Under the pieces are notes generated by a model. It was not told the DNA's origin, searched no databases, and worked only from the letters and a program-made list of their open reading frames with translations. Shown here piece by piece: positions 597 through 56,806 of a stretch of DNA of 56,806 nt. Positions within the stretch are counted from its first letter, which is position 1, and every line of letters starts with the position of its first letter. The translations under genes and the position numbers were made by a program. The stretch comes from a virus (Duplodnaviria > Caudoviricetes), in the IMG/VR virus record IMGVR_UViG_3300027805_000017, positions 1 to 56,806 of that record. One strand, given 5' to 3'.

Positions 597-3500
597 ATGA
601 ACGAAGACGATCTCTTAGCCATTGAACAAGCATCTGCTCCTTTGACCGAGGTAGGCGAGCCGAGTATTGATCCAGCTATCCTTGCTGCTAGTACTCCTGC
701 CTCGCCTGAGTCTACAGGAAAAATAGCTGCTATTGGAGCAGGAGCAGCAGAGGGTGCAGCAGGGGTAGGTTTGCCCTTGGCGGGTGCCATGGTAGGAGCT
801 AAAACAGGAATGCTTCTCGGTGCTCCATTGGGTCCTGCTGGTGTTGGAATCGGTGGCGTATTAGGAATGGGAACGGGGTTTTTTGCCGGTCGTCAGGCTT
901 CCAGTGCCATCAAGGAACTTTTGCCACCAAAACCTACTGACCCTGAGTTAGTTCCATATCGTGAGGGCGGCAAGACATTTGGTGAAACAATGGCCATCGC
1001 TCCGATGGCTTTTGGCATTCCGATTAAGAGTGCGCAGCAGATTTCTGGTTACATCAGCAACATGTCTCCGGTCTTGGCCAATGTGCCAGGCGGTGTTGCA
1101 TCGGGTCAGCTAGGTAAATTTATTGCAGATACGGCAGCTCTGATTGGTCAGACTGCACAGAAATACCCTAAATCGTTTCTTGGCGCAGAGTTTTTTGGAG
1201 CAGTAGGTGCAGGAATTGGCGGTGGGGTCGCGGAAACGATGGCTCCCGGTGAAGCCGGTCCTAAATTCGTGGGCGAAGTCGCAGGAGGCTTTTTATTTCC
1301 TGGACGCATGGTGTTGTCTGCCTCTGGTTCTGCAAAGGACTTTGTTGGAACGGTTGCGCAAAGCTTGTCCAAAGATTCACGGGAAGGTCGTGCTGCCAAT
1401 AAACTTTTTTCTATTCTTGAAGAGTCAGGCGAGGACATCCCTGCGCTGATCAAGAAGCTTTCCAAGCCTGATGTGGATGGAGTTGTTCCGTCTGCGGCAC
1501 AGAAGACAGGTTCTAAAACTTTGAGCGTGCTTGAAACCACGCTTGCAAAGAACAACGCGCAGTATGGCGCAGATGTCTTAAAGCAGGGCGAAGAGTCCCT
1601 TAAAGCATATAAGCTTCTTGCACAACGCTTGCAAGACATTGGTACGCCAGAGTCCTTGGCAAAAGCGGCAGAGCTGCGACAGAATTATTTTGATGGAATG
1701 TTGGACACGCGCTTGAAGCTCGCAGATGCAGAGGCTGCAAGACGTGTTGCCAAGATTACAAAGGACACGCCACAGTCTCGCGTCCAGATCGGAAATATTG
1801 TCAAGACGCAAACTGATGATGCACTGAAGGATGCGCGCGAGCATGAGCGCTTCTTGTGGCAAAACGCATTTAAGGATTCAGTCGAGACCACTACAAAAGG
1901 CGGAAAGACCACGCTGAAGTACAAGGAAGTCACACCTGCCTCGACAGGCGAAGAGTTCTTGAACATTGCAACTTCCATGACGCCTGAGCGCTTTAATGCG
2001 CGCATGCCTGCAGAAGTGCGCAAGATTATGGCACGCTTAGGTATTGATGATGCTGCAATTAAGCGCTATGAGCAGGGTAAGCAGACGCAGGAATATCTTG
2101 AAACAGGAAAAGTTCCGGCGGAGTATTTAACACGCACAACACCTGCCCCAAAAAGCTCCTTGGAACTTCCTCCAAGAGTGTCTCCTGTCATTGGAGTAGG
2201 TGAACAAAAGACTGTTTTCAAAGACACCAACGTCAATGATCTGATCAATATTCGCAGTGACCTCTTGTCCTTTGCTCGCGATGCAGCAGCGCGTGGTGAA
2301 GCAGCAAATGCAAACTTTTACGGACGTCTTGCAGAATCTACATTGCAGGATCTGAACACGCTGCAAAGCCCTGCGTATGACGCCGCACGTCAGTTTTCAC
2401 GTACGTTAAATGATACGTTTACCCGCACTTATGCGGGAGACGTGGCAACAGGCGTGACCAAGACGGGTGCAGAGAAGATTCCTGCCGAAATCCTTGTATC
2501 GCGCGCCTTTGGCAGCAACGCAGATGTCACGGCACTTCGGATGCAGGAGATACAAGACGCTGTGGGCATGATGCGTACTCAGTATGATGATGCCATCGCA
2601 CGCTTCGGACCAGATAGCGCAGAAGCGGCACAACTCAAGCCTTTTGCTGACCTGGCCACACAGCGAGTGGACTCCATTGGCGATGCGCAGCAACGTGTGT
2701 TGCGTCTGGCTGCTGCCAAGACTGTTGATCCGGTTACTGGACGCGTCAACCCACGTCAGCTCACGAACTTTGTTAACGAAAACCGTGGGATGCTGGACAA
2801 GTTTGGTGTAACCAACGATCTACAGGATGCGCTAAAAGCAGAGAATGCTTTCCAAGCGGTCAGCCAACAGAATAGTTTTGCAAACAAAAAGCTTCGCAAA
2901 GAAACTGCCTTCTCTCAAGTCTTGCAAAGTGAGAATCCAACTCGGGCAATAACAGACGTTTTAAATAGTCGTTACCCTGTCAAGAACTTCACCAATGTCG
3001 CCAAGCTTGCTAAGTCCGGTGGACCTGAGGCGGTGGATGGCTTGAAGTCCATCGTCTATGATTATGCCTTCACCAAGGCAGGAGGCATGGATAAGTTTGA
3101 TGTGACTAAATTCCGTGCCGCTCTTTTTGATCCGATGGCCAAGGATCAGCCTTCTGTTTTGAACATGATGCGTAGCCAAGGATTGATCAGTAATACTGAA
3201 GTAAGAAACCTGCTGTCCATTGTCCGTCCCATGGAGAAAGTTGAAAAGGCCATGGGCACCAAGCAGATGATGGATGAAGTTGTCCAAGGTGCGGATGCGG
3301 TAACAGAACTCGCCATGCGTGTGGTCGGTGCAAGAATTGGTACTGCGGCCTCGGGCGGCGGTCCAGGCGCTCTGATTGCAGCCTCTGCTGGATCGAAGGC
3401 CGTGCGAAATATCTTTGACAAGATGCCTACCATGATGATTCGTGGCATCATTGAGCAAGCCACACAAGACCCACAAATGATGGCAATGTTGCTTAAGAAA

Positions 3501-3821
3501 GGCGTGACAGAAGGCGAGCGTATTCTGATGGCGCGCCAACTCCATGCCTACTTAGGTGCCGCAGGCTTGAATTATGCAGACTTTGAAGAGCCCCCTCCAG
3601 AGCCACAAGCTGCCCCTAAGCCAACCGCGCGCCAGATGCTGTATAACGCAAGGTCGCCAACACCCACGCGTGGCACACCAGGGCTCATGAACCAAGCGCC
3701 AGGGCAACCCCCTAGCGCACCACCGCCCGCGGCTCTCGGACCACAAGGCGCTGCCCCTTCGCAGAGCCGCCAGATGCTCGCCGCCCTCTTCCCAGAGGAC
3801 CGTATGTTGCCAGGAGCTTAG
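597..3821 (+). CDS. Large internal virion / DNA ejection protein (1074 aa)
   Basis: Gly/Ala-rich hydrophobic N-terminal segments, helical body, P/Q-rich tail; follows other ejection-type genes. Confidence 0.65.
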   Translation: MNEDDLLAIEQASAPLTEVGEPSIDPAILAASTPASPESTGKIAAIGAGAAEGAAGVGLPLAGAMVGAKTGMLLGAPLGPAGVGIGGVLGMGTGFFAGRQASSAIKELLPPKPTDPELVPYREGGKTFGETMAIAPMAFGIPIKSAQQISGYISNMSPVLANVPGGVASGQLGKFIADTAALIGQTAQKYPKSFLGAEFFGAVGAGIGGGVAETMAPGEAGPKFVGEVAGGFLFPGRMVLSASGSAKDFVGTVAQSLSKDSREGRAANKLFSILEESGEDIPALIKKLSKPDVDGVVPSAAQKTGSKTLSVLETTLAKNNAQYGADVLKQGEESLKAYKLLAQRLQDIGTPESLAKAAELRQNYFDGMLDTRLKLADAEAARRVAKITKDTPQSRVQIGNIVKTQTDDALKDAREHERFLWQNAFKDSVETTTKGGKTTLKYKEVTPASTGEEFLNIATSMTPERFNARMPAEVRKIMARLGIDDAAIKRYEQGKQTQEYLETGKVPAEYLTRTTPAPKSSLELPPRVSPVIGVGEQKTVFKDTNVNDLINIRSDLLSFARDAAARGEAANANFYGRLAESTLQDLNTLQSPAYDAARQFSRTLNDTFTRTYAGDVATGVTKTGAEKIPAEILVSRAFGSNADVTALRMQEIQDAVGMMRTQYDDAIARFGPDSAEAAQLKPFADLATQRVDSIGDAQQRVLRLAAAKTVDPVTGRVNPRQLTNFVNENRGMLDKFGVTNDLQDALKAENAFQAVSQQNSFANKKLRKETAFSQVLQSENPTRAITDVLNSRYPVKNFTNVAKLAKSGGPEAVDGLKSIVYDYAFTKAGGMDKFDVTKFRAALFDPMAKDQPSVLNMMRSQGLISNTEVRNLLSIVRPMEKVEKAMGTKQMMDEVVQGADAVTELAMRVVGARIGTAASGGGPGALIAASAGSKAVRNIFDKMPTMMIRGIIEQATQDPQMMAMLLKKGVTEGERILMARQLHAYLGAAGLNYADFEEPPPEPQAAPKPTARQMLYNARSPTPTRGTPGLMNQAPGQPPSAPPPAALGPQGAAPSQSRQMLAALFPEDRMLPGA

Positions 3822-3824
3822 TAA

Positions 3825-5339
3825 ATGGCACAAGCAAAGAAGATGCTGTCAAAGCTCAAGCGCTTTCAAGAAGGAGGCGAGGTACAAGACGAGTTTCCTG
3901 AAGAAGCGGGCGTCATGCCTGGACAAAACCCTTCCGAGGCCGCCAAGCAGATGCTGTTTTACAAGAAAACGGCTGCACCAACGCCACCAACGGATTTGAC
4001 TCGCTTAGGCAAACAAGCAGGACTCATTGGCTTGGGCTTTGCACCTGGCTCCGGTGTAGCGGACTATTTCGGAAAGTTTCCTGCGGTAGAGGGCGGTACT
4101 GAGCCGAGCGCCGTGGAGAATTTTCAAAAAGGTAATTACGGTACCGCCGCCCTACAGGGCTTGGGCGCTATGGGTGACCTAGCCATGGCGGTGCCTGTTG
4201 CGGGTGCCGCGATTGGAAGCGTGATGAAAGCTCCGCGAACCGCGCAGCGTATTCTTTCATCAAGCACCACGGCCAAGGATGATTTGGTGAAGCTGTTAGG
4301 CTACAGCGAAGACATTCCCAACGAAAAATGGCTTGCTGGAAAGGTAGAAGATGCTGTATCCGGCGGGACAAATTCTTTTGGTGTTCCAAGACGAATGGGC
4401 TCGACTACGGGCTACTTTGGGAAACCAGTGGAAGTTCCTGTTGAAATACTGGCTAAATTACCTGGAGAAAGGGCAGAGCAAAGTAATGTCCGTAAAGACT
4501 CATTGGATTACATCCGCAAGAATTGGGATACGGTGTCAAAAGAGGCACCATATATTGAAGTAGATCCGTTTGGTAAAGCTTGGGTCAGCGAAGGTAACCA
4601 TAGAATTATGGTGGCCAAGGAAAAAGGTTTGAAAACACTTCCGGTAGAGATTCGTTACTTTAGCGGTGGCCAACGTAATGCAGGCGAGCTTGCTCCAGAG
4701 AAAATACTTGAGTACAACTTGCCGAGCACCACCACGGCCAAGGATGATTTGGCGAAGGTGCCAAAAGCACCAAAAGCGGAAAATGATGAAAGCCTAAATA
4801 AAATGCTTGAGAAAAGCGTGGTGAAAGAACCTGTGTATCACGCATCAAAGGCAGATGTAAAAACCTTTTCTCCCGAATACAAAACAGAGCTCTCAAGCAT
4901 GGGATATCACTTCGGCACAGCAGATCAGGCAAATTTTAGAACAGGGCAATACGACTTCTCTGGCGATAACGTGAACATTGGGAAGTATTATTTAGACATC
5001 AAGAACCCATTAGAAACATCTCATATGGGGTCTTTTGCGCCTGACCACTTGGCTGATCAGATGATGGAGATGGGTATACTCGACCCAGCTAAGTACGATG
5101 CGCTTGCAAGCAAACTTAATTATGAATCCGTGCCTTTAGGAAATGCGTTGGTAAAGATTCTTAAAAAGAATGGTTATGATGGCTTGAAGTATGCAAACGA
5201 AAGGGAGGGAGAAGGTTTCTCTTTTGTGCCTTTTGACGCAACACAAATAAAATCAGCTACAGGAAACCGTGGCACATACGATCCTACAACTCCTGACATA
5301 ACGATGGCCAAAGGCGGAGAAGTACGTAAACCCAAATGA
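3825..5339 (+). CDS. Multidomain effector: Gly-rich N-region, ParB/Srx-like domain, ADP-ribosyltransferase-like domain (ART-PolyVal type)
   Basis: PYIEV..WVSEGNHRIMVAKEKGLKTLPVEI (ParB-N G-x-H-R motif); VYHAS..GYHFGT..YYLDIKNPL..GYDGLKY..FDATQIKSATGNRGTYDP (polyvalent-protein ART signature). Confidence 0.75.
   Translation: MAQAKKMLSKLKRFQEGGEVQDEFPEEAGVMPGQNPSEAAKQMLFYKKTAAPTPPTDLTRLGKQAGLIGLGFAPGSGVADYFGKFPAVEGGTEPSAVENFQKGNYGTAALQGLGAMGDLAMAVPVAGAAIGSVMKAPRTAQRILSSSTTAKDDLVKLLGYSEDIPNEKWLAGKVEDAVSGGTNSFGVPRRMGSTTGYFGKPVEVPVEILAKLPGERAEQSNVRKDSLDYIRKNWDTVSKEAPYIEVDPFGKAWVSEGNHRIMVAKEKGLKTLPVEIRYFSGGQRNAGELAPEKILEYNLPSTTTAKDDLAKVPKAPKAENDESLNKMLEKSVVKEPVYHASKADVKTFSPEYKTELSSMGYHFGTADQANFRTGQYDFSGDNVNIGKYYLDIKNPLETSHMGSFAPDHLADQMMEMGILDPAKYDALASKLNYESVPLGNALVKILKKNGYDGLKYANEREGEGFSFVPFDATQIKSATGNRGTYDPTTPDITMAKGGEVRKPK
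4265..4752 (+). repeat. 23-bp direct repeat CACCACGGCCAAGGATGATTTGG (4265-4287, 4730-4752) bracketing the ParB-like domain
   Basis: Exact in-frame repeat; both copies encode TTAKDDL. Confidence 0.9.
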
Positions 5340-7764: not shown

Positions 7765-8112
7765 GTGCCCAAAGTTTACGTTGTATCGGAAACTGCACAA
7801 CACAATATTACGTCTGCCATGGCTTTTGGTGACATAGAAACGCTCTTGCCTCCCAACGCACAGATTGCTTTTTCCGTGGTGCCAACCGTTCGTCGCATTC
7901 AACGTAAGCTTGAAAAGTTTACCGATGACGATTATCTTCTGTTTATTGGTGATCCTACAGCTATTGCTATTATTAGCTCTATTGCATCAGCAAAGAATCA
8001 CGGACGGTACAAGTGTTTGAAGTGGGATAAGTTTGAACGGATGTATATCCCCATCCAAGTTGACCTCAATCCAAAGAAAGGAGAATTTGATGACTTTGAC
8101 GAATTTGTTTGA
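7765..8112 (+). CDS. Conserved phage hypothetical protein, small alpha/beta fold
   Basis: GTG start with strong AAGGAG RBS; first gene of operon. Confidence 0.75.
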   Translation: MPKVYVVSETAQHNITSAMAFGDIETLLPPNAQIAFSVVPTVRRIQRKLEKFTDDDYLLFIGDPTAIAIISSIASAKNHGRYKCLKWDKFERMYIPIQVDLNPKKGEFDDFDEFV

Positions 8113-8644
8113 AACCGATTCGGAAGCCTTTGCGCTTGCCGATGACCAGTTGTCCAGCATCGCCGCTCTTGGCCGACGCGCAAAGCTTCTTGAAAAAGAG
8201 CTCGAGGAGTTTGAGCTTGAATTCAAGAAACGCAAAGAGCAGTATCGCAAAATGATTGAAGAGTCTATCCCCGAGGCACTCACTAGCTTAGGGATGAAAT
8301 CATTCAAAATGGATGACGGCTCCTCCATCGAGATCAAACCGTTCTACAGCGCCAGCATCACAGACGCCCGCCGTGCAGAGGCGTTTGAGTGGCTGCGTGA
8401 AAACGGCTTTGATGACATCATTAAAAACACCGTGAGCGTGCGCTTTGGCCGCGGTGAAGACGAGCTCTGCGCTCGCCTACTGAATCTGCTTGGTGAGAAA
8501 GGCTATCCCGCTGATCAAGCCGAGAAGATCGAACCAATGACCTTAAAAGCATTTGTTCGTGAACAGGTGGAACGAGGAAACGAGTTTCCCACCGAACTTT
8601 TTGGCGTCTACATCGGCCAGAAAGCAACCATTAAATCCGTTTAA
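8090..8644 (+). CDS. Conserved replication-module hypothetical protein (184 aa)
   Basis: RBS AAAGGAG before ATG 8090; coiled coil then AFEWLRENGFDDIIKN..TLKAFVRE. Confidence 0.75.
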   Translation: MTLTNLFETDSEAFALADDQLSSIAALGRRAKLLEKELEEFELEFKKRKEQYRKMIEESIPEALTSLGMKSFKMDDGSSIEIKPFYSASITDARRAEAFEWLRENGFDDIIKNTVSVRFGRGEDELCARLLNLLGEKGYPADQAEKIEPMTLKAFVREQVERGNEFPTELFGVYIGQKATIKSV

Positions 8645-8674
8645 CGACGTTTAACGAATCAAGGATCAAGAATC

Positions 8675-9445
8675 ATGTCAAAATCTGACTCAGCAGTAGC
8701 AGTAAAAGGTACCTCCGCTCTGGCCATGGCACCCTCGTTTGAAGACGATGCACATGCCGGTTTTGATGGTATGAATCAAGACGATTTTGCACTACCTTTT
8801 CTACGACTTCTGACAAATGTGTCGCCCGAAGTCGGTGAAGTAGAAGGTGCAATGCCAGGTATGATCTACAACACCGTTTCCGGTGAACTGTATGATGGCA
8901 AGAAGGGTATCTTGGTTGTTCCTACGGTATACAACCGTGTCTACATCGAGTGGGCACCACGTGGTAGCGGCAGCGGCGCACCTATTGGTATTTACCCTAG
9001 CACTAGCGACATCTTGTCTAAGACTCACCGCGAACCTGGTGAGAACAAAGACTATCTCGACAATGGAAATTACATTGAAAACACCGCCAATCACTACGTG
9101 ATGGTGTTGGATGACAATGGTATACCTAATCCTGCGTTGATTGTTATGAAGTCCACACAACTGAAGAAGTCCAGAAAGTGGAATTCTATGGCGATGTCTG
9201 TCAAACTGCAGGGTAAGAACGGCCTGTACACTCCTCCGATTTACAGTCAAATATATCGACTGACCACGGTCCAAGAGTCTAACGACAAGGGTAAGTGGTT
9301 TGGTTGGGAGATTGAACGAGTAGGCACGATTGAGGACGCAAGCGTCTATCAAGCTGCTAAACTTTTTGCTGCATCGGTTAGCTCCGGTGAAGTGAAAGTC
9401 AAGCATCATGACGAAGCGTCAACAGTAGAAACCAACCCGTTCTAA
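8675..9445 (+). CDS. Probable single-stranded DNA-binding protein
   Basis: Position before primase; beta-rich; acidic/aromatic C-terminus (VETNPF). Confidence 0.65.
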   Translation: MSKSDSAVAVKGTSALAMAPSFEDDAHAGFDGMNQDDFALPFLRLLTNVSPEVGEVEGAMPGMIYNTVSGELYDGKKGILVVPTVYNRVYIEWAPRGSGSGAPIGIYPSTSDILSKTHREPGENKDYLDNGNYIENTANHYVMVLDDNGIPNPALIVMKSTQLKKSRKWNSMAMSVKLQGKNGLYTPPIYSQIYRLTTVQESNDKGKWFGWEIERVGTIEDASVYQAAKLFAASVSSGEVKVKHHDEASTVETNPF

Positions 9446-20302: not shown

Positions 20303-20560
20303 ATGCCTGTAAGAGATGAGGTGGTGGGGTTGGTTGGAATCACTCAAAGACAGCATTACATGCGTCGCAGCTCAACAAGTAAGAGGATTAGATATCCGTT
20401 CAAGGCCATGATCCGTGGTGACTACTTCTTGTGTGAGTCACCTCTGGAAGTGGAAAACATCAGAAGCGCATTAAAATCGTTCTACCGGCGCTACCCGACA
20501 AGGCGGTTTACTGTCAGGCAGGGTGAGGAAGATGGTCTTTGGATCGTGAGGAGGGTTTAG
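20303..20560 (+). CDS. Small basic, putative DNA-binding protein
   Basis: AAAGGAGG RBS; RYPFKAMIRGDYF..FTVR..IVRRV motif. Confidence 0.7.
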   Translation: MPVRDEVVGLVGITQRQHYMRRSSTSKRIRYPFKAMIRGDYFLCESPLEVENIRSALKSFYRRYPTRRFTVRQGEEDGLWIVRRV

Positions 20561-20562
20561 AC

Positions 20563-21363
20563 ATGGCTTTGTCAAAAGAACAGCGAGCGGAGCGTCGCAA
20601 GGCTGCGCGGTCGCTTCAAAAGCCTCCTACGCTGCTTAAAGCGTCCCTGGCGGCACGTTTAAATGAGCCTGTACCCAAGCCTAAGGGGGGTCGATTTAAA
20701 GCGCTGAGCGAGCGGGAATGGCGTTTTGTGCATGAGCTGGTGTCTGGCGAGGGCCAGGTCACGATGAAAGAGGCTGCAATACGTGCGGGGTATTCTGAAG
20801 CCTCAGCAACAAGCATGGCCACCGCATTAACAAGTCCTGAATCGCACCCCCACGTTGTGGCCGCTATACAGGAATTTAGGCGTGAGATAGCAGAAAAATA
20901 CGGCACCACGTTCGAGCGGCACATGAGGGACATGCAGATTATTCGTGACAGGGCACTCGAGGCGGGCAATTACGGCGCCGCGGTGGCTGCTGAATATAGG
21001 CGTGGGCAGGCGCTCGGGACTATCTACATTGATCGCAAAGAAATCCGGCACGGTACGATTGACAGCATGTCTAAAGAGGAAGTTATGCGTAAGCTTACAG
21101 AGATTAAAAAACTCTATGGTGGCTCGCCTGGTGGGGTGTTGGATATTGAAGTCAATCAAATTGAGGAGGTAAGCGATGCCGATGAAACCGGAAGCAGCGC
21201 TCTCGAAAAAGTTAAGCGAAAATTTGCCGCAAGCCCTGATCACGAAGATCGAGAACCGGGTGAACCTCGGGATTCCGGATCTTCTGATAGCTTTGGATTC
21301 TCCTTCGATGTTCGTAATGATGGAGTTGAAGATAGTCAAGACAGGACTAAAGATAAACCTTAG
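20563..21363 (+). CDS. terS: Terminase small subunit
   Basis: LSEREWRFVHEL..EAAIRAGYSEASA HTH typical of TerS; start taken at ATG 20563. Confidence 0.8.
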   Translation: MALSKEQRAERRKAARSLQKPPTLLKASLAARLNEPVPKPKGGRFKALSEREWRFVHELVSGEGQVTMKEAAIRAGYSEASATSMATALTSPESHPHVVAAIQEFRREIAEKYGTTFERHMRDMQIIRDRALEAGNYGAAVAAEYRRGQALGTIYIDRKEIRHGTIDSMSKEEVMRKLTEIKKLYGGSPGGVLDIEVNQIEEVSDADETGSSALEKVKRKFAASPDHEDREPGEPRDSGSSDSFGFSFDVRNDGVEDSQDRTKDKP

Positions 21364-23463: not shown

Positions 23464-23634
23464 TTAATCTTCTTCGCCTGCATATGGGTCAAACCCTGAA
23501 TCATTGCCATGTCTCTGCGCCCACTCCCTGCGCTGGATCTCTTGCAAAGCAAAAGCATAATTTTCTATATCTTTTTCTAATTGTGCTTTATGTCCTTTTT
23601 CCTCTGACTTCCAATCAAATGGTTCGTAGATCAT
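23464..23634 (-). CDS. Hypothetical protein (56 aa), first gene of leftward cluster
   Basis: Manual translation MIYEPFDWKS..AGEED; GGAG RBS. Confidence 0.55.
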   Translation of the reverse strand: MIYEPFDWKSEEKGHKAQLEKDIENYAFALQEIQRREWAQRHGNDSGFDPYAGEED

Positions 23635-23851
23635 TTTTAGCTCCGGTTTGTTTTCGTTTGCTTGTACTGCGCGTTAAGTGTAACAACAAAACACCACAAA
23701 ACACCACGCCCACAACATGATATTTTTTAATCAGAATAGATAACTAATAGTTTTCTTTTAATAGTGTTTAGACGTGTTTTAAGGCCTTTTGAGCGTGTTT
23801 AGTGGTTCTTGAGGCCTATACATAGGGCAAAACAACGCTTGTTTTTATGCG

Positions 23852-23867
23852 TGTTCCACGTGGAACA
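23852..23867. promoter_or_regulatory. parS: parS-like palindrome TGTTCCACGTGGAACA, copy 1
   Basis: Perfect 16-bp palindrome matching the chromosomal parS consensus TGTTNCACGTGNAACA. Confidence 0.75.
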
Positions 23868-24059
23868 ATAGGGGAAAAAACTGTATCATAATTAAAAAAC
23901 AGTGAATTTCACTACAAAAGAATGTTTATACATTTGTTATAACTGCCCGCACGAAAAAAAGGATAAACCAGGCCCGCGGTCCGCGGCCCGTTTTCCCTGG
24001 TAAGTTTCCCGAGCTCGCGGCCCGTGATCCGTGATCCGTGTTGCTTGGTCCGCGGCCAT

Positions 24060-24075
24060 TGTTCCACGTGGAACA
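24060..24075. promoter_or_regulatory. parS: parS-like palindrome, copy 2
   Basis: Identical 16-mer, extending to a 22-bp palindrome 24057-24078. Confidence 0.75.
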
Positions 24076-24165
24076 ATGCGCGGCCGGTGGTGCGTGGTGC
24101 ATGCCTGGTGGCCGGTGGTCAATGATGCGCGGCCCGCGGCCAGGGATCCTAGGTGCATGTTGATT

Positions 24166-24181
24166 TGTTCCACGTGGAACA
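24166..24181. promoter_or_regulatory. parS: parS-like palindrome, copy 3
   Basis: Identical 16-mer, part of a 27-bp direct repeat with copy 2. Confidence 0.75.
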
Positions 24182-24533
24182 ATGCGCGGCCCGCGGGCCC
24201 TGGTACATGGACCATGTCACCAGGCCCGAGCACCGATAGCCAGGCGCTATGCATTACGGGCAACGATAGGCGCTAGCTATCCAAGAGCCGCGGCTCAGGG
24301 TTAACCCTCAGGGTACCTTGGGGTGATCGGGTTTACCCTAGGTTAGTGGGCACTCACTCACAGAAAATAGGCCTACCTTCGCGCCTGCGGCAGCTTGAGC
24401 CCTATTTCACACAAAATATCACCGCCAGATCGTAAATGACTAAGAAGACCTTACTGTCGTCCCGTGAACCACCCCCCTTTGTTTTAAAAACGCATATGCC
24501 TAAAAATTTTTTAAAATTTCAAACGCAAATGAC

Positions 24534-24553
24534 TTTGTGACATAGATCACAAA
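24534..24553. promoter_or_regulatory. CRP/CAP-type box upstream of terL
   Basis: TTTGTGA-CATAGA-TCACAAA = TGTGA-N6-TCACA with palindromic flanks. Confidence 0.55.
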
Positions 24554-24619
24554 CTTATATTCACTGCACACAAAGTCTCGGTTATAGAAACCTTCTGTGC
24601 TGCGTGATATCATCGCGCC

Positions 24620-26098
24620 ATGAACCTTGCACATAGTTCCCATGCGGCTGAGATAGAATCCGAGAAGCTCAGGCTCGAGTTGCGTCTTTCGATGTTGGAT
24701 GCCCAAGAGAAAGCCCGTGAGCATTTCATCGACTTTGTTCGTTATGTCTGGCCATCCGCGATCCTCGGAGAGCATCACCGAATCATGGCTAATGCTTTTG
24801 ACCGCATTGCCAAGGGTACGCTCAAGCGCTTGATCATCAACATGCCACCGAGACACACCAAGTCCGAGTTTGCATCCTATCTTCTGCCTGCCTTTTTGAT
24901 GGGCCTTGATCCGCGGACCAAGGCAATTGAGGCGACACACAACAGCGAGTTAGCCGTAAGGTTTGGCCGTAAGGTGCGAGACTTGATGGATACGCAGGGG
25001 TACAAGGAATTGTTTCCTGATGTGTTGCTCAAGCAAGATAGCAAGGCGGCGGGTCGGTGGGACACGAATAAGGGCGGGGAATACTTTGCGGTCGGCGTGG
25101 GGGGTGCGATGACGGGTCGCGGTGCGGATGTCTTGATTATTGACGACCCGCACTCGGAGCAGGATGCGATGAGTGATTTGGCGTTGGACAATGCGTGGGA
25201 GTGGTATAGCTCGGGTCCTCGCACGCGCTTGCAGCCTGGTGGTTCGATTGTGGTGGTGATGACACGGTGGGGGACGAAGGATTTGACGGCGCGGTTGTTA
25301 AATGCGCAGAAATCGCGGAACGCGGATCAGTGGGAGGTGATTGAGTTTCCTGCTATTTTGCCAAGCGGGCGGGCGTTGTGGCCGGAGTTTTGGAAGTTAG
25401 AGGAGTTGGAGGGTGTGCGGGCATCTTTGTCTGTGCAGAAGTGGAACGCGATGTACCAGCAGCAGCCTACCAATGACGAGGGTGCAATTCTCAAGCGCGA
25501 GTGGTGGAAGGTGTGGCAGCACGATGAGCCGCCACAAGCGGACTATGTGATTCAGAGTTACGACACGGCGTACTCCAAGAAGGAGACGGCGGACTTTTCT
25601 GTCATCACGACATGGGGCGTGTTTCACCCAACCATGGACGACGGGCCAAACATCATCTTGATGTCTGTCAAGAAGGGGCGGTGGGACTTTCCTGAATTAA
25701 AGAGAATAGCGATAGAGGAGTACAGGTACTGGCAGCCGGACAATGTGCTGATTGAGGCGAAAGCGACGGGAACGACCTTGCAGCAGGAGTTGCGACGCGT
25801 CGGGATTCCTGTGACGATGTACTCGCCGGGCGGTCGTAGAACCGGGCAGGACAAGGTATCGCGAGCAAACTCGGTAGCCCCGATCCTTGAGTCTGGGTTA
25901 GTGTGGGCGCCTGACACACAATGGGCCGAGGAGCTTGTCGAGGAATGCGCGGCCTTTCCTAACGGGGATCATGACGACCAGGTGGACAGCACGATACAGG
26001 CGCTGATGCGGTTTCGCTCGGGCAACTTCATTACTCTGGGCACGGACGAGCCGTGGGAGGACAAAACGGATGCGGGGGTTGTGCCGGAGTATTATTGA
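24620..26098 (+). CDS. terL: Terminase large subunit
   Basis: NMPPRHTKS, GRGADVLIIDDP, SYDTAY..ADFS, IEAKATG, FPNGDHDDQVDS. Confidence 0.95.
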   Translation: MNLAHSSHAAEIESEKLRLELRLSMLDAQEKAREHFIDFVRYVWPSAILGEHHRIMANAFDRIAKGTLKRLIINMPPRHTKSEFASYLLPAFLMGLDPRTKAIEATHNSELAVRFGRKVRDLMDTQGYKELFPDVLLKQDSKAAGRWDTNKGGEYFAVGVGGAMTGRGADVLIIDDPHSEQDAMSDLALDNAWEWYSSGPRTRLQPGGSIVVVMTRWGTKDLTARLLNAQKSRNADQWEVIEFPAILPSGRALWPEFWKLEELEGVRASLSVQKWNAMYQQQPTNDEGAILKREWWKVWQHDEPPQADYVIQSYDTAYSKKETADFSVITTWGVFHPTMDDGPNIILMSVKKGRWDFPELKRIAIEEYRYWQPDNVLIEAKATGTTLQQELRRVGIPVTMYSPGGRRTGQDKVSRANSVAPILESGLVWAPDTQWAEELVEECAAFPNGDHDDQVDSTIQALMRFRSGNFITLGTDEPWEDKTDAGVVPEYY

Positions 26099-31593: not shown

Positions 31594-32058
31594 GTGGAAG
31601 CTGAGAAAACGTTAACTGCGCTTGAGCGCAAGTGGCAGCAAGAAGCCTTGGAGAAAGGTCCAAGTCTAGACGACGCCTATACGGCAGACGGGGAATTTGA
31701 TCCCTCGAAGCTTGAAGGCGAAGTAATGGACAGGATTCCAACCCCAACAGGCTGGCGCATGGCCATTTTGCCGTATCGAGGTGCGGAGAAATCCAAAGGC
31801 GGTATTGTTCTTGCCGAAGAAACCCAAAAGCGTACGCAATTAGCCACGACATGTGGCTATGTACTAAAGATGGGTGACTTGGCGTTTAAGGACGAGTCTA
31901 AATTCCCTCACGGTCCGTGGTGCAAGGAGGGGGATTGGATCATCTTTGGTCGTTACGCGGGTTCTAGGATCTCTATTGATGGTGGAGAGATTCGTATCTT
32001 GAACGATGACGAGATTATTGGCGTGCTCAATGATCCTTCTGATATTTTGCATATGTAA
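31594..32058 (+). CDS. groES: Co-chaperonin GroES (Cpn10)-like protein
   Basis: PTGWRMAI..KSKGGIVL..GYVLKMG..KEGDWIIFGRYAGS..RILNDDEIIGV. Confidence 0.88.
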   Translation: MEAEKTLTALERKWQQEALEKGPSLDDAYTADGEFDPSKLEGEVMDRIPTPTGWRMAILPYRGAEKSKGGIVLAEETQKRTQLATTCGYVLKMGDLAFKDESKFPHGPWCKEGDWIIFGRYAGSRISIDGGEIRILNDDEIIGVLNDPSDILHM

Positions 32059-55311: not shown

Positions 55312-56806
55312 ATGAAATCAAAAGTATTGAGCAGACCGATGTTTAATAAAGGGGGTATGGCCGAGCCGATCCCTGAGGATATGGTCGAGAACGTAGGCAT
55401 CATGCAGGGTTTTATGGATGATGACGCTGAAGACTTTGAGGCCGAGGAAATGGATGAGCGCGCGCCTAATTCACCAGAAATTCTGATGAATAACTTGCGT
55501 GGCGACATGCGCTCGGTTGATGCGCGCGTGGACGAATTGGCCAATCTCGTAGGTGAAGAGGTTGCCATGGACACACCCACCGAAGTATTGGCGCTGTTGC
55601 AGCCCGTGCTTGCCGCACAGAGCGGAATTGGTGCGCTGCCCGCGGGTATGCCCCCAGGGATGCCACCCGGTATGCCACCGGGTATGCCTCCAGAAATGGG
55701 CATGCCACCTGGTATGCCTCCAGAAATGGGCATGCCACCTGGTATGCCTCCAGAAATGGGTATGCCCCCTGTACCACCCGGTGCAGAAGGTGGTATCGGC
55801 GCATTAATGGCGCCTCCCGCTCCACCGCCCACGGCCCAAGCGCCAATTAACATGGCCAAGGGTGGATACGTCCAAGTTCAGCGTTTTCAAGAGGGGTCCG
55901 GTGAGGAGGGCGTGACCCCAGCTACTACTTACCCTCCAGAGTTAGTTAAGTATGCGCAAGAACAACTGATGGCGCAGCGCGGCGCAGGAAACTTAAAGCA
56001 GTCTGTGGAAGATGTGATGCCTGTTTACCGAGAAATCCTCGGTGGCGGGGATCGTCGCACGATGCAAGGTCAGGCCTTGTTGGATATTGCGCAGGCCGGT
56101 TTAAATCTTGCCTCGGGACGTAATGCACAAGGTGCGAATGTGGCGGGCGGATCGTTTGCCTCGCAACTCGCTTCTGCAGCACAAGGCTTACCCGCAAAGC
56201 TTGCCGAGCGCGCCGGACAGTTTCAGCAAGAAGAGCGTGCTATTAAATTAGCGGCGCTTAAATCTGCTGAGTCGAATGTGGAAAGTCAGCGTAAGCTCTT
56301 TTCACAAATTGTGAAGAGCTCAGGGCAGAGTCCTTTTGGTAAGGGTGACTGGGATTGGGCAGTATTAAACCGTCCTGGTTTGCTGCAAAAGTGGACGGAA
56401 GGTAACGTCACGGCTGAAGAGGACATGTTGGTTCAGTCGGCAATTACAAAGATGCAGTCGCCAAAAACAGAATTTAAGACAGACCCTGTTACAAAACTAC
56501 CCTATCCAGTCCAAGTTCCTGGAGTCCTGCCACCTTTTGTAGCAGAAGCTGTTAATAAACGTGGAGGCATAAGAACGACTGGTGGAACTACGACTGGTGG
56601 AACTACGACCGCGGATAAGATTACAGCAATAACTGATCCTAATGATCCACTTCGCCGAGATGAGGAACAAGCAGGTAAGCGAGAGAAAGCAGGAACTCCT
56701 ACTATCCCGAAAGAAGTGACGGCCAGTACGTACTCAAAGAATGAGCCTACCTTCTTCAATATGGCAGGTCGTGGAACAGGTCCAATTAGTGTGGCAAAGC
56801 CCTTTG
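55312..56806 (+). CDS. N-terminal part of the ~650-aa ejection/internal virion protein (continues to 592); absent from the ORF track because there is no stop before the window end
   Basis: AAGGA RBS; MKSKVLSRPMFNKGGMA..; open to the end and in frame with 44-592. Confidence 0.85.
   Translation, partial: MKSKVLSRPMFNKGGMAEPIPEDMVENVGIMQGFMDDDAEDFEAEEMDERAPNSPEILMNNLRGDMRSVDARVDELANLVGEEVAMDTPTEVLALLQPVLAAQSGIGALPAGMPPGMPPGMPPGMPPEMGMPPGMPPEMGMPPGMPPEMGMPPVPPGAEGGIGALMAPPAPPPTAQAPINMAKGGYVQVQRFQEGSGEEGVTPATTYPPELVKYAQEQLMAQRGAGNLKQSVEDVMPVYREILGGGDRRTMQGQALLDIAQAGLNLASGRNAQGANVAGGSFASQLASAAQGLPAKLAERAGQFQQEERAIKLAALKSAESNVESQRKLFSQIVKSSGQSPFGKGDWDWAVLNRPGLLQKWTEGNVTAEEDMLVQSAITKMQSPKTEFKTDPVTKLPYPVQVPGVLPPFVAEAVNKRGGIRTTGGTTTGGTTTADKITAITDPNDPLRRDEEQAGKREKAGTPTIPKEVTASTYSKNEPTFFNMAGRGTGPISVAKPF
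55681..55770 (+). repeat. Three 30-bp tandem repeats (GMPPEMGMPP), preceded by 12-bp GMPP units
   Basis: GGTATGCCTCCAGAAATGGGCATGCCACCT twice exact, third copy near-exact. Confidence 0.9.
56673..56806. repeat. Terminal direct repeat, right copy
   Basis: Matches 1-134 with one mismatch. Confidence 0.95.

Follow-up and report, generated by a model that had tools for sequence, protein, structure and literature searches.

Why does a phage that encodes no partition protein carry the centromere of a bacterial chromosome? This question is raised by a virus of the Caudoviricetes (IMG/VR record IMGVR_UViG_3300027805_000017), which we analyzed over its full length; the 56,806 bases of this entire virus record are called the window below. 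The 16-bp palindrome TGTTCCACGTGGAACA occurs three times in the window, at positions 23852-23867, 24060-24075 and 24166-24181 (copies 1 to 3), and all three occurrences are perfect. They lie in a 985-bp non-coding gap (23635-24619) between divergent transcription units, directly upstream of terL, the gene for the terminase large subunit. An earlier note, written from the letters of the window, had read the palindromes as parS, the conserved site bound by the chromosomal partition protein ParB, and had proposed that the phage exploits the host system through a cis-acting site. We tentatively propose that the three palindromes are orphan, cis-only loading sites for host ParB, from which the phage would draw a benefit in partition or positioning.

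Identity of the palindrome and search for a cognate protein

Apart from the three copies, the 56,806 bases contain no match to TGTTCCACGTGGAACA, even if up to three mismatches are tolerated. In 100 dinucleotide-preserving shuffles of the window, matches numbered 0.25 on average and two at most, and three matches were reached in none of them (0/100). The exact string is given as the parS site of Pseudomonas putida in Table 1 of a review (PMC7022226). The same table lists TGTTCCACGtGGAACa for Pseudomonas aeruginosa, TGTTCCACGTGGAACG for Myxococcus and TGTTNCACGTGAAACA for most of the other entries, and the P. aeruginosa site matches TGTTCCACGTGGAACA at the level of the consensus. A scan of prokaryotic genomes, with one genome per species, located at least 138 stretches with exactly this 16-mer; they come from many phyla, and groups of two to four are frequent. 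Genes that mark the replication origin (gidA, gidB, parA, parB, recF, gyrB, dnaN and mnmE) were located within 2 kb of the 16-mer in 31 of 45 bacterial loci when the flanking open reading frames (ORFs) were searched with Pfam, and 63 of 80 bacterial loci were matched by origin-marker proteins in a tblastn search. Because origin-marker genes adjoin the 16-mer in bacteria, and because of the review table, we consider it the origin-proximal centromere site of bacterial chromosomes. By its sequence, the 16-mer of the window is a chromosome-type parS. The likeness to chromosomal ParABS systems extends beyond the 16 bp themselves, since the sites are clustered in both (three within 330 bp in the window; origin-proximal clusters in bacteria) and the sites of the window and its relatives vary at the positions at which chromosomal sites tolerate variation. 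In contrast to the chromosomal systems, the phage site comes without parA, parB or genes of the origin region, and its cognate protein must be supplied by another replicon.

The absence of such genes can be stated for the whole phage. The record, listed as "linear, 96% complete", represents a closed genome of about 56.7 kb, because its ends (1-134 and 56673-56806) overlap by 134 bases with 99.25% identity and one mismatch; therefore, no genes are missing from it, and the frames 55312-56805 and 2-592 form one gene. A six-frame search of the closed genome with hidden Markov models (HMMs) detected no ParB_N (PF02195) or HTH_ParB (PF17762) domain at E<=10, and no ParA-type AAA_31 (PF13614) or tyrosine integrase (Phage_integrase) domain was found at E<=1 in a six-frame search of the window, while the same HMM searches were positive in 10 to 14 control genomes. 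Pfam scans of the 62 distinct ORFs of the window did not reveal any ParB, ParA or integrase either, nor any repressor or plasmid replication family, although many of these ORFs are without a family. Thus, a complete partition locus as known from P1, N15 and plasmids, with parA and parB on the same element, was not found in the window. ParB_N was also absent from all 50 records of relatives that were searched (0/50), eight of which are at least 90% complete. We additionally compared the ORF content of four parS-bearing and five parS-free complete or nearly complete genomes of the group. The only ORF whose distribution followed that of the site was a 51-codon alternative frame within a Pam3 gp33-like gene; it also weakly matches two of the parS-free genomes and was judged an artefact, so that no real co-varying gene was seen in these nine genomes, a number that gives the test limited power. 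Taken together, the statements of the earlier note that three perfect copies of the palindrome occur in non-coding DNA and nowhere else, that they match the conserved chromosomal parS, and that the phage has neither parAB nor an integrase were all borne out, and a phage protein as the cognate binder, which the note had named as one refuting outcome, was looked for and not seen.

The same note had recognized one ParB-like domain in the phage, in ORF 3825 (3825-5339, plus strand), and had seen no helix-turn-helix (HTH) in it. Pfam is blind to this domain and assigns only ART-PolyVal (residues 336-484), which makes the product a polyvalent-type protein. Residues of about 150-300, which correspond to a module of about 140 residues common to the homologues of ORF 3825, were modelled with a predicted local distance difference test (pLDDT) score of 83-97, and the first 15 Foldseek rows from the PDB all have the ParB/sulfiredoxin fold (ParB, Srx, pNOB8 ParB-N, SbnI, PadC, KorB, Noc), at E values of 0.07 to 0.26 with none <=0.001. 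Leads from the Atlas scored 0.78-0.79, below the bar of 0.9; ParB_N matched one of 26 homologues (E = 0.022), and a profile search of the PDB returned nothing. The ParB-like domain therefore stands weakly, on a model and on weak structural matches, whereas the lack of an HTH is upheld, since HTH_ParB was not detected in ORF 3825. We rejected ORF 3825 as the binder of parS: besides lacking an HTH, its gene is absent from all eight other complete or nearly complete genomes of the group (8/8), three of which carry parS, and it can therefore not be the binder of the family. In its homologues the module is fused to GNAT, nucleotidyltransferase, chitinase-like and PBECR1 nuclease domains. The 504-codon gene is preceded by an ORF of 1074 codons without a family (both within 597-5339).

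parS in related phages and in other viral contigs

The earlier note had suggested looking for the palindrome in related phages. We fetched the best 80 of 218 TerL relatives in viral contigs together with their flanks (579 kb). At least one perfect NGTTYCACGTGRAACN was present in 36 of the 80 loci, with 41 sites in total. When 300 palindromes with permuted half-sites were searched in the same 579 kb, 297 gave no match and one gave a single match; the remaining two, which overlap parS, gave nine each. Variation among the sites is confined to positions 1/16 and to the Y/R pair at positions 5/12, which is the freedom that the chromosomal consensus has. The 41 sites and the three of the window, 44 in all, form 17 clusters when grouped by their flanks; with the arrays of the window's clade counted as one, about 12 unrelated contexts remain. 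The relatives were thus positive in many independent contexts. While a site shortly upstream of terL is common (see below), others are located at -10, at -417 to -770, just 3' of terL or in other intergenic spots, and some are even found within long ORFs (1262 and 772 codons), where they occupy linker-like stretches of low conservation. Since sites occur in long ORFs and in varied intergenic places, parS function does not appear to depend on position. A fixed place relative to the terminase genes, as a packaging (pac) site requires, was not found across the relatives.

In the TerL tree the window groups with the loci L131 and L132 (support 100), each of which has three sites 417-543 bases upstream of terL. 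Copy 2 of the window aligns to TGTTCCACGTGAAACA in L131 and to TGTTTCACGTGAAACA in L132, and the differences are confined to positions 5 and 12. The aligned sites thus read TTCCAC..GTGGAA in the window, TTCCAC..GTGAAA in L131 and TTTCAC..GTGAAA in L132, and this TTCCAC/TTTCAC variation is exactly that permitted by the chromosomal consensus. Copy 3 is aligned to an identical site of L131. Copies 2 and 3 sit among the short repeats of a G+C-rich array and have 27 bases, flanks included, in common; 18 bases are common to all three copies. Copy 1 lies farther left, where the gap is rich in A+T, and is lineage-specific, since L131 and L132 have no site at the aligned place. A metagenome contig (run X7) joins position 23835 directly to 23964, skipping 23836-23963; as judged from this junction, it is a natural variant in which the stretch that holds copy 1 is either missing or replaced. 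In contigs of four metagenome runs, the 40 base differences with the best support and 12 of the indels all fell outside the 48 parS bases; there are 325 further base differences and 18 further indels, and we draw no conclusion from this.

Some loci without a full site show what may be its remains or its replacement. In L126, L155, L158, L167 and L172, an ORF that abuts terL (about 260 bases before it) shows Cys-x-x-Cys and His-His motifs, was read by eye as HNH-like and occupies the usual place of parS and of a promoter-like block; a homing-type insertion may have replaced the site in these phages. Seven further loci (L138, L141, L147, L152, L153, L154, L159) have no full site and carry GGTTTCACGTGGATCC 40 bases before terL, a perfect half-site followed by a broken second half, which is possibly a decayed or half-functional site. 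At the usual place, 88 bases before terL, L150 and L151 contain GGTTTCCCGTGGAACA; its A-to-C exchange at core position 7 is the change listed for the parS of Thermus thermophilus (PMC7022226). The label "none" in our tree refers to a locus of at most 9.4 kb, and L190 and L194 end before the position that the site has in their near-identical kin.

The palindrome is not restricted to these relatives. In 2.9 million viral contigs the exact 16-mer was found in at least 121 stretches, whereas three composition-matched control palindromes gave 2, 3 and 9 stretches, so that it is at least 13- to 60-fold commoner than the controls. We surveyed the first 80 loci of the at least 121 stretches (L004-L083). 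Fourteen of them belong to distant kin of the window phage, in which the site is near terL, portal or capsid genes, while the remaining ones adjoin genes for baseplate, polymerase, HNH, terminase, portal, tail-sheath and microvirus pilot proteins. The viral loci span G+C contents of 0.21 to 0.73; of 82 sites, 30 are located between genes. In contrast to the bacterial loci, no origin-marker gene was detected nearby in any of the 80 viral loci, and ParB_N occurred in only two of the first 50 viral records and in none of the seven that are at least 90% complete. Host contamination does not explain the viral 16-mers. Their recurrence across unrelated viral contigs (at least 121 versus 2 to 9 stretches) suggests a phenomenon that extends well beyond the window phage.

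Possible roles of host ParB on the phage genome

ParB nucleates at parS, spreads as a cytidine triphosphate (CTP) clamp, engages ParA and loads SMC, as has been established elsewhere. We think it probable that host ParB also loads on the phage parS. Once the genome has been injected, and also while it replicates, ParB dimers would nucleate there, turn into closed CTP clamps and spread to the adjoining phage DNA, whereby phage genomes would become cargo of host ParA and, where present, of SMC. Phage DNA would thereby find a place over the nucleoid and reach both daughter cells whenever lysis comes late, for instance because the host grows slowly or starves, or in a carrier state. The cost would amount to 16 bases and no gene, and competition with the host origin for ParB would be an unavoidable side effect. 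That partition or positioning is the main benefit is a plausible suggestion rather than a probable one. We rank it above titration of ParB and above a role in local regulation or packaging because a single site is the commonest state, and the position independence of the sites favors a general cis function, be it a centromere or a sink, over one that is specific for a promoter or for pac. Wherever the sequence allowed a test, the proposal of the earlier note that the phage recruits host ParB was supported: the site is a real parS, it is present in relatives, and no phage ParB was found. Its picture of a cis-only hijack fits as well, as the element carries just the cis site of a partition system that is encoded elsewhere. 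The sequence cannot choose, however, among the positioning, segregation, shielding and titration which the note had offered as purposes.

Several observations weigh against a partition function. The family of the phage is equipped with a complete module for lytic replication (family A polymerase, primase, helicases), nothing in it hints at life as a plasmid, and the need for partition is therefore a conjecture. The site is also patchily distributed: it occurs in four of ten complete or nearly complete genomes of the group, and no site was found, with up to two mismatches allowed, in the cultured pelagiphage HTVC023P or in the uncultured 023Pt_psg01. Counts over whole genomes were three for the window, one each for the complete relatives G001, G002 and G003 and for G004, and zero for G005, G007, G009, G012, G016 and DSL-LC04. 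At least 13 gains or losses are required on well-supported branches of the TerL tree. Because of this patchiness and of these changes, parS must be regarded as dispensable, and on present genomes it is an accessory rather than a core trait of the group. Where it is present, it often takes a preferred place: in 26 of 72 loci with enough upstream DNA, a perfect site lies within 700 bases upstream of terL, and 24 of these 26 are found about 80 to 100 bases before its start, which would fit a regulatory or packaging role, too. Furthermore, the half-site GTTYCAC is not enriched in the window (28 occurrences, or 22 after removal of the six inside full sites, versus 16.2 +/- 4.3 expected). Fewer core columns than flank columns are variable (1 of 14 versus 72 of 125), but this comparison is biased, since the rows were chosen for the site, and was not used as evidence for selection. 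Finally, the parS variant cannot identify the host, since the 16-mer spans many phyla.

If host ParB binds, the benefit could also be takeover of the cell. Hundreds of replicating genomes with one to three high-affinity sites each might drain ParB from the host origin and thereby disturb chromosome segregation, the ParA-linked control of replication initiation or, in hosts whose MipZ-type systems couple it to ParB, cell division. Such a titration would account for the same sequence evidence; position independence suits a sink as well as a centromere, and the tripled site in the window's clade would provide a higher capacity. Moreover, the parS mimics of Salmonella genomic island 1 (SGI1) are described to displace its helper plasmid as well (PMC10954446), and plasmid ParBs are reported to avoid cross-talk with the chromosomal site normally (PMC13245405), which implies that sharing is disruptive. 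Still, a sink should favor many sites, whereas most relatives have a single one, and parB is described as non-essential in many bacteria (PMC7022226), so that a drain need not hurt the host within one latent period. We therefore consider titration unlikely as the main benefit. A local role of bound ParB appears less likely still; the protein might regulate or block the divergent promoters of the gap, or assist as an accessory factor at a pac site near terL. This reading draws on the 26 relatives with a site within 700 bases of terL and on the 24 at about 80 to 100 bases, as well as on the layout of the window, where copy 1 is directly downstream of a leftward match to a sigma-70-like consensus (23912-23885) and copies 2 and 3 are inside an array of 7-base repeats. 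P. aeruginosa ParB, moreover, represses promoters next to the intergenic sites parS3 and parS4 (PMC5521831). However, sites also occur in long ORFs, 3' of terL and in other intergenic places, and in distant kin near portal and capsid genes; phages with an identical TerL either have or lack the site (L126/L128, L169/L171), and the promoter calls are consensus matches that are no more frequent than in shuffles.

The palindrome might instead be bound by something other than ParB, such as the small terminase, a regulator whose fold was not recognized, or a mimic of ParB with host parS among its targets. Many ORFs of the window are without a family, the region is full of other short repeats that are probably bound by a phage protein, and ORF 3825 contains a module with a putative ParB/Srx fold. 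Yet neither HTH_ParB nor ParB_N was found in six frames, ORF 3825 is without an HTH and absent from parS-bearing relatives, and no gene co-varies with the site between the four genomes with and the five without it. In addition, the chromosomal consensus, including the variation it permits, was reached independently in about 12 contexts, and the same 16-mer stands beside unrelated genes in unrelated phages. A private phage binder would have no reason to track the host consensus so exactly and is therefore disfavored; we regard it as improbable, about as much as the local role. The idea that the sites have no function at all and are due to chance, to neutral debris or to the mis-assembly of host DNA into viral contigs has in its favor that many relatives dispense with the site. 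It is hardly credible and is already contradicted by our results: none of the shuffles reached three matches, permuted palindromes are essentially absent from the 579 kb, the control palindromes fall far behind the at least 121 viral stretches, origin markers adjoin 63 of 80 bacterial loci and none of the 80 viral ones, and the sites of the window are flanked by terL and other phage genes in a closed genome.

How does the proposed use of host ParB by the phage compare with known systems? Partition systems are thought to keep replicons apart through private site specificities. The phages P1 and N15 encode their own ParA and ParB with such a specificity and live as plasmid prophages. Like them, the window phage has centromere sites on its genome; unlike them, it has no parA or parB, its site is that of the chromosome, and no lysogeny genes were found. 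A virulent-type phage with only the centromere of the host chromosome would hence differ from the P1/N15 case. A single chromosomal parS on an unstable plasmid reportedly stabilizes it in a manner that depends on Spo0J and Soj (ParB and ParA), as Lin and Grossman are said to have found in 1998 and others later. Their case is a laboratory construct on a plasmid, whereas the site described here is a natural one on a phage. In the literature, P1 parABS and N15 sop are cited as phage-plasmid partition systems (PMC7156551, PMC12704722). A closer parallel is SGI1, which is described to carry mimics of the parS of IncC plasmids and to use the plasmid's ParABS system (PMC10954446). As in the window phage, a mobile element would have only the cis site, and SGI1 uses ParB and ParA of the owner for its maintenance and disturbs the owner. 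SGI1 is, however, an integrative mobilizable island whose victim is a helper plasmid, while we deal with a virulent-type phage whose presumed victim is the chromosomal system of the host. It makes a helper protein, Sci, for which no counterpart was found in the phage, and its hijack was demonstrated experimentally, whereas the phage case is a proposal from sequence. In the full-text literature we searched, from which subscription journals were largely missing, a natural host-type parS in phages without ParB was not described; the matches were confined to engineered ParB/parS tags in phages, phage-encoded ParABS systems and the SGI1 case.

A wider interpretation is possible, and we offer it with somewhat more reserve than the partition reading itself: orphan parS may be a widespread device of virulent phages of ParABS-bearing bacteria that has evolved repeatedly and independently. 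With one to a few perfect parS, phage DNA would attract ParB-CTP clamps, which in turn would bring in ParA, SMC or division regulators, so that the replicating phage pool would be organized or partitioned while the host origin would be uncoupled from the segregation machinery. The site would then be a gene-free element of 16 bases for host takeover and persistence, gained or lost according to the host. If this is true, ParB, which most bacteria possess, would be a routine target or tool of phage infection. Such a site could account for the persistence of non-temperate phages in cells that divide slowly, and it would represent a gene-free manipulation of the host that is invisible to annotation based on genes.

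The terL gap, the phage genome and its kin

Apart from the gap that holds all three parS, there is no large intergenic gap in the neighborhood of the packaging genes. The alignment of the gap with L131 and L132 contains indels whose lengths are not multiples of three. Degenerate 7-base repeats related to GGCCCGC and CCGTGAT, some of them with GATC, form a G+C-rich array in the central part of the gap (23960-24260). Similar arrays are located upstream of terL throughout the family, in L131, L132 and L209 (5210-5680) and also in DSL-LC04, which is free of parS. The array looks like a candidate binding array for a phage protein, with pac or the replication origin as conceivable functions. The contigs of many relatives end within about 560 bases of terL. 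Further to the right, a block with nested short palindromes (GGGTTAACCC, ACCCTCAGGGT) is near-invariant among the window, L131 and L132 (24288-24359); in three of four metagenome runs (X1, X5, where it is tied, and X7, but not X2) it has the top summed contig depth. An RNA element in the gap was considered and rejected, since the fold of 24270-24420 is unremarkable against shuffles (z = -0.63) and no Rfam family matches the gap at threshold.

Close to terL, an A+T-rich conserved block (24472-24533, plus strand) is the counterpart of the promoter-like block of the relatives (TTGTCA, 17 bases, CAAAAT; read by eye), which in turn has the usual upstream parS about 30-35 bases upstream of it, again read by eye. 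We take 24472-24533 as a putative promoter on this by-eye reading, whereas a scan for sigma-70-like consensus matches marks 24585-24613 instead. terL itself (24620-26098, plus strand; phrog_38, 1.2e-113; Terminase_6C and Terminase_6N) is the first gene of the rightward structural operon and is followed by genes for a DUF4214 protein and the portal. On the other side of the gap, a gene for a 56-aa protein without a family (23464-23634, minus strand) opens the leftward unit, with a GP88-like gene next to it. A gene resembling that of the terminase small subunit (20539-21363, plus strand; phrog_51, 5.4e-10) is located 3.3 kb upstream of terL, and at the syntenic place DSL-LC04 has an annotated terminase small subunit gene.

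The gene set as a whole is podovirus-like, with a family A polymerase, a primase, UvrD- and SNF2-type helicases, an SU10-type adaptor and an HK97-like capsid protein; no tRNA was found in the window. According to TerL, its kin are the metagenome-assembled phage DSL-LC04 (77%) and pelagiphages of the HTVC023P type (57-61%), and a protein search of 50,697 phage records gave no cultured relative nearer than these pelagiphages (TerL identity of 57-61%). A Pseudomonas host has been predicted in silico for DSL-LC04 (PMC10611076), and DSL-LC04 carries no parS. Among the relatives, the parS variant does not track the G+C content. Near-identical pieces of the window phage were present in soil, wastewater, freshwater-sediment, wetland and oil-sands metagenomes (20 runs from 10 studies). 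The replication region contains a gene trio resembling Pam3 gp32, gp33 and gp34 (7765-9445), and the structural operon includes a GroES-like (Cpn10) gene (31594-32058), which is also annotated in DSL-LC04.

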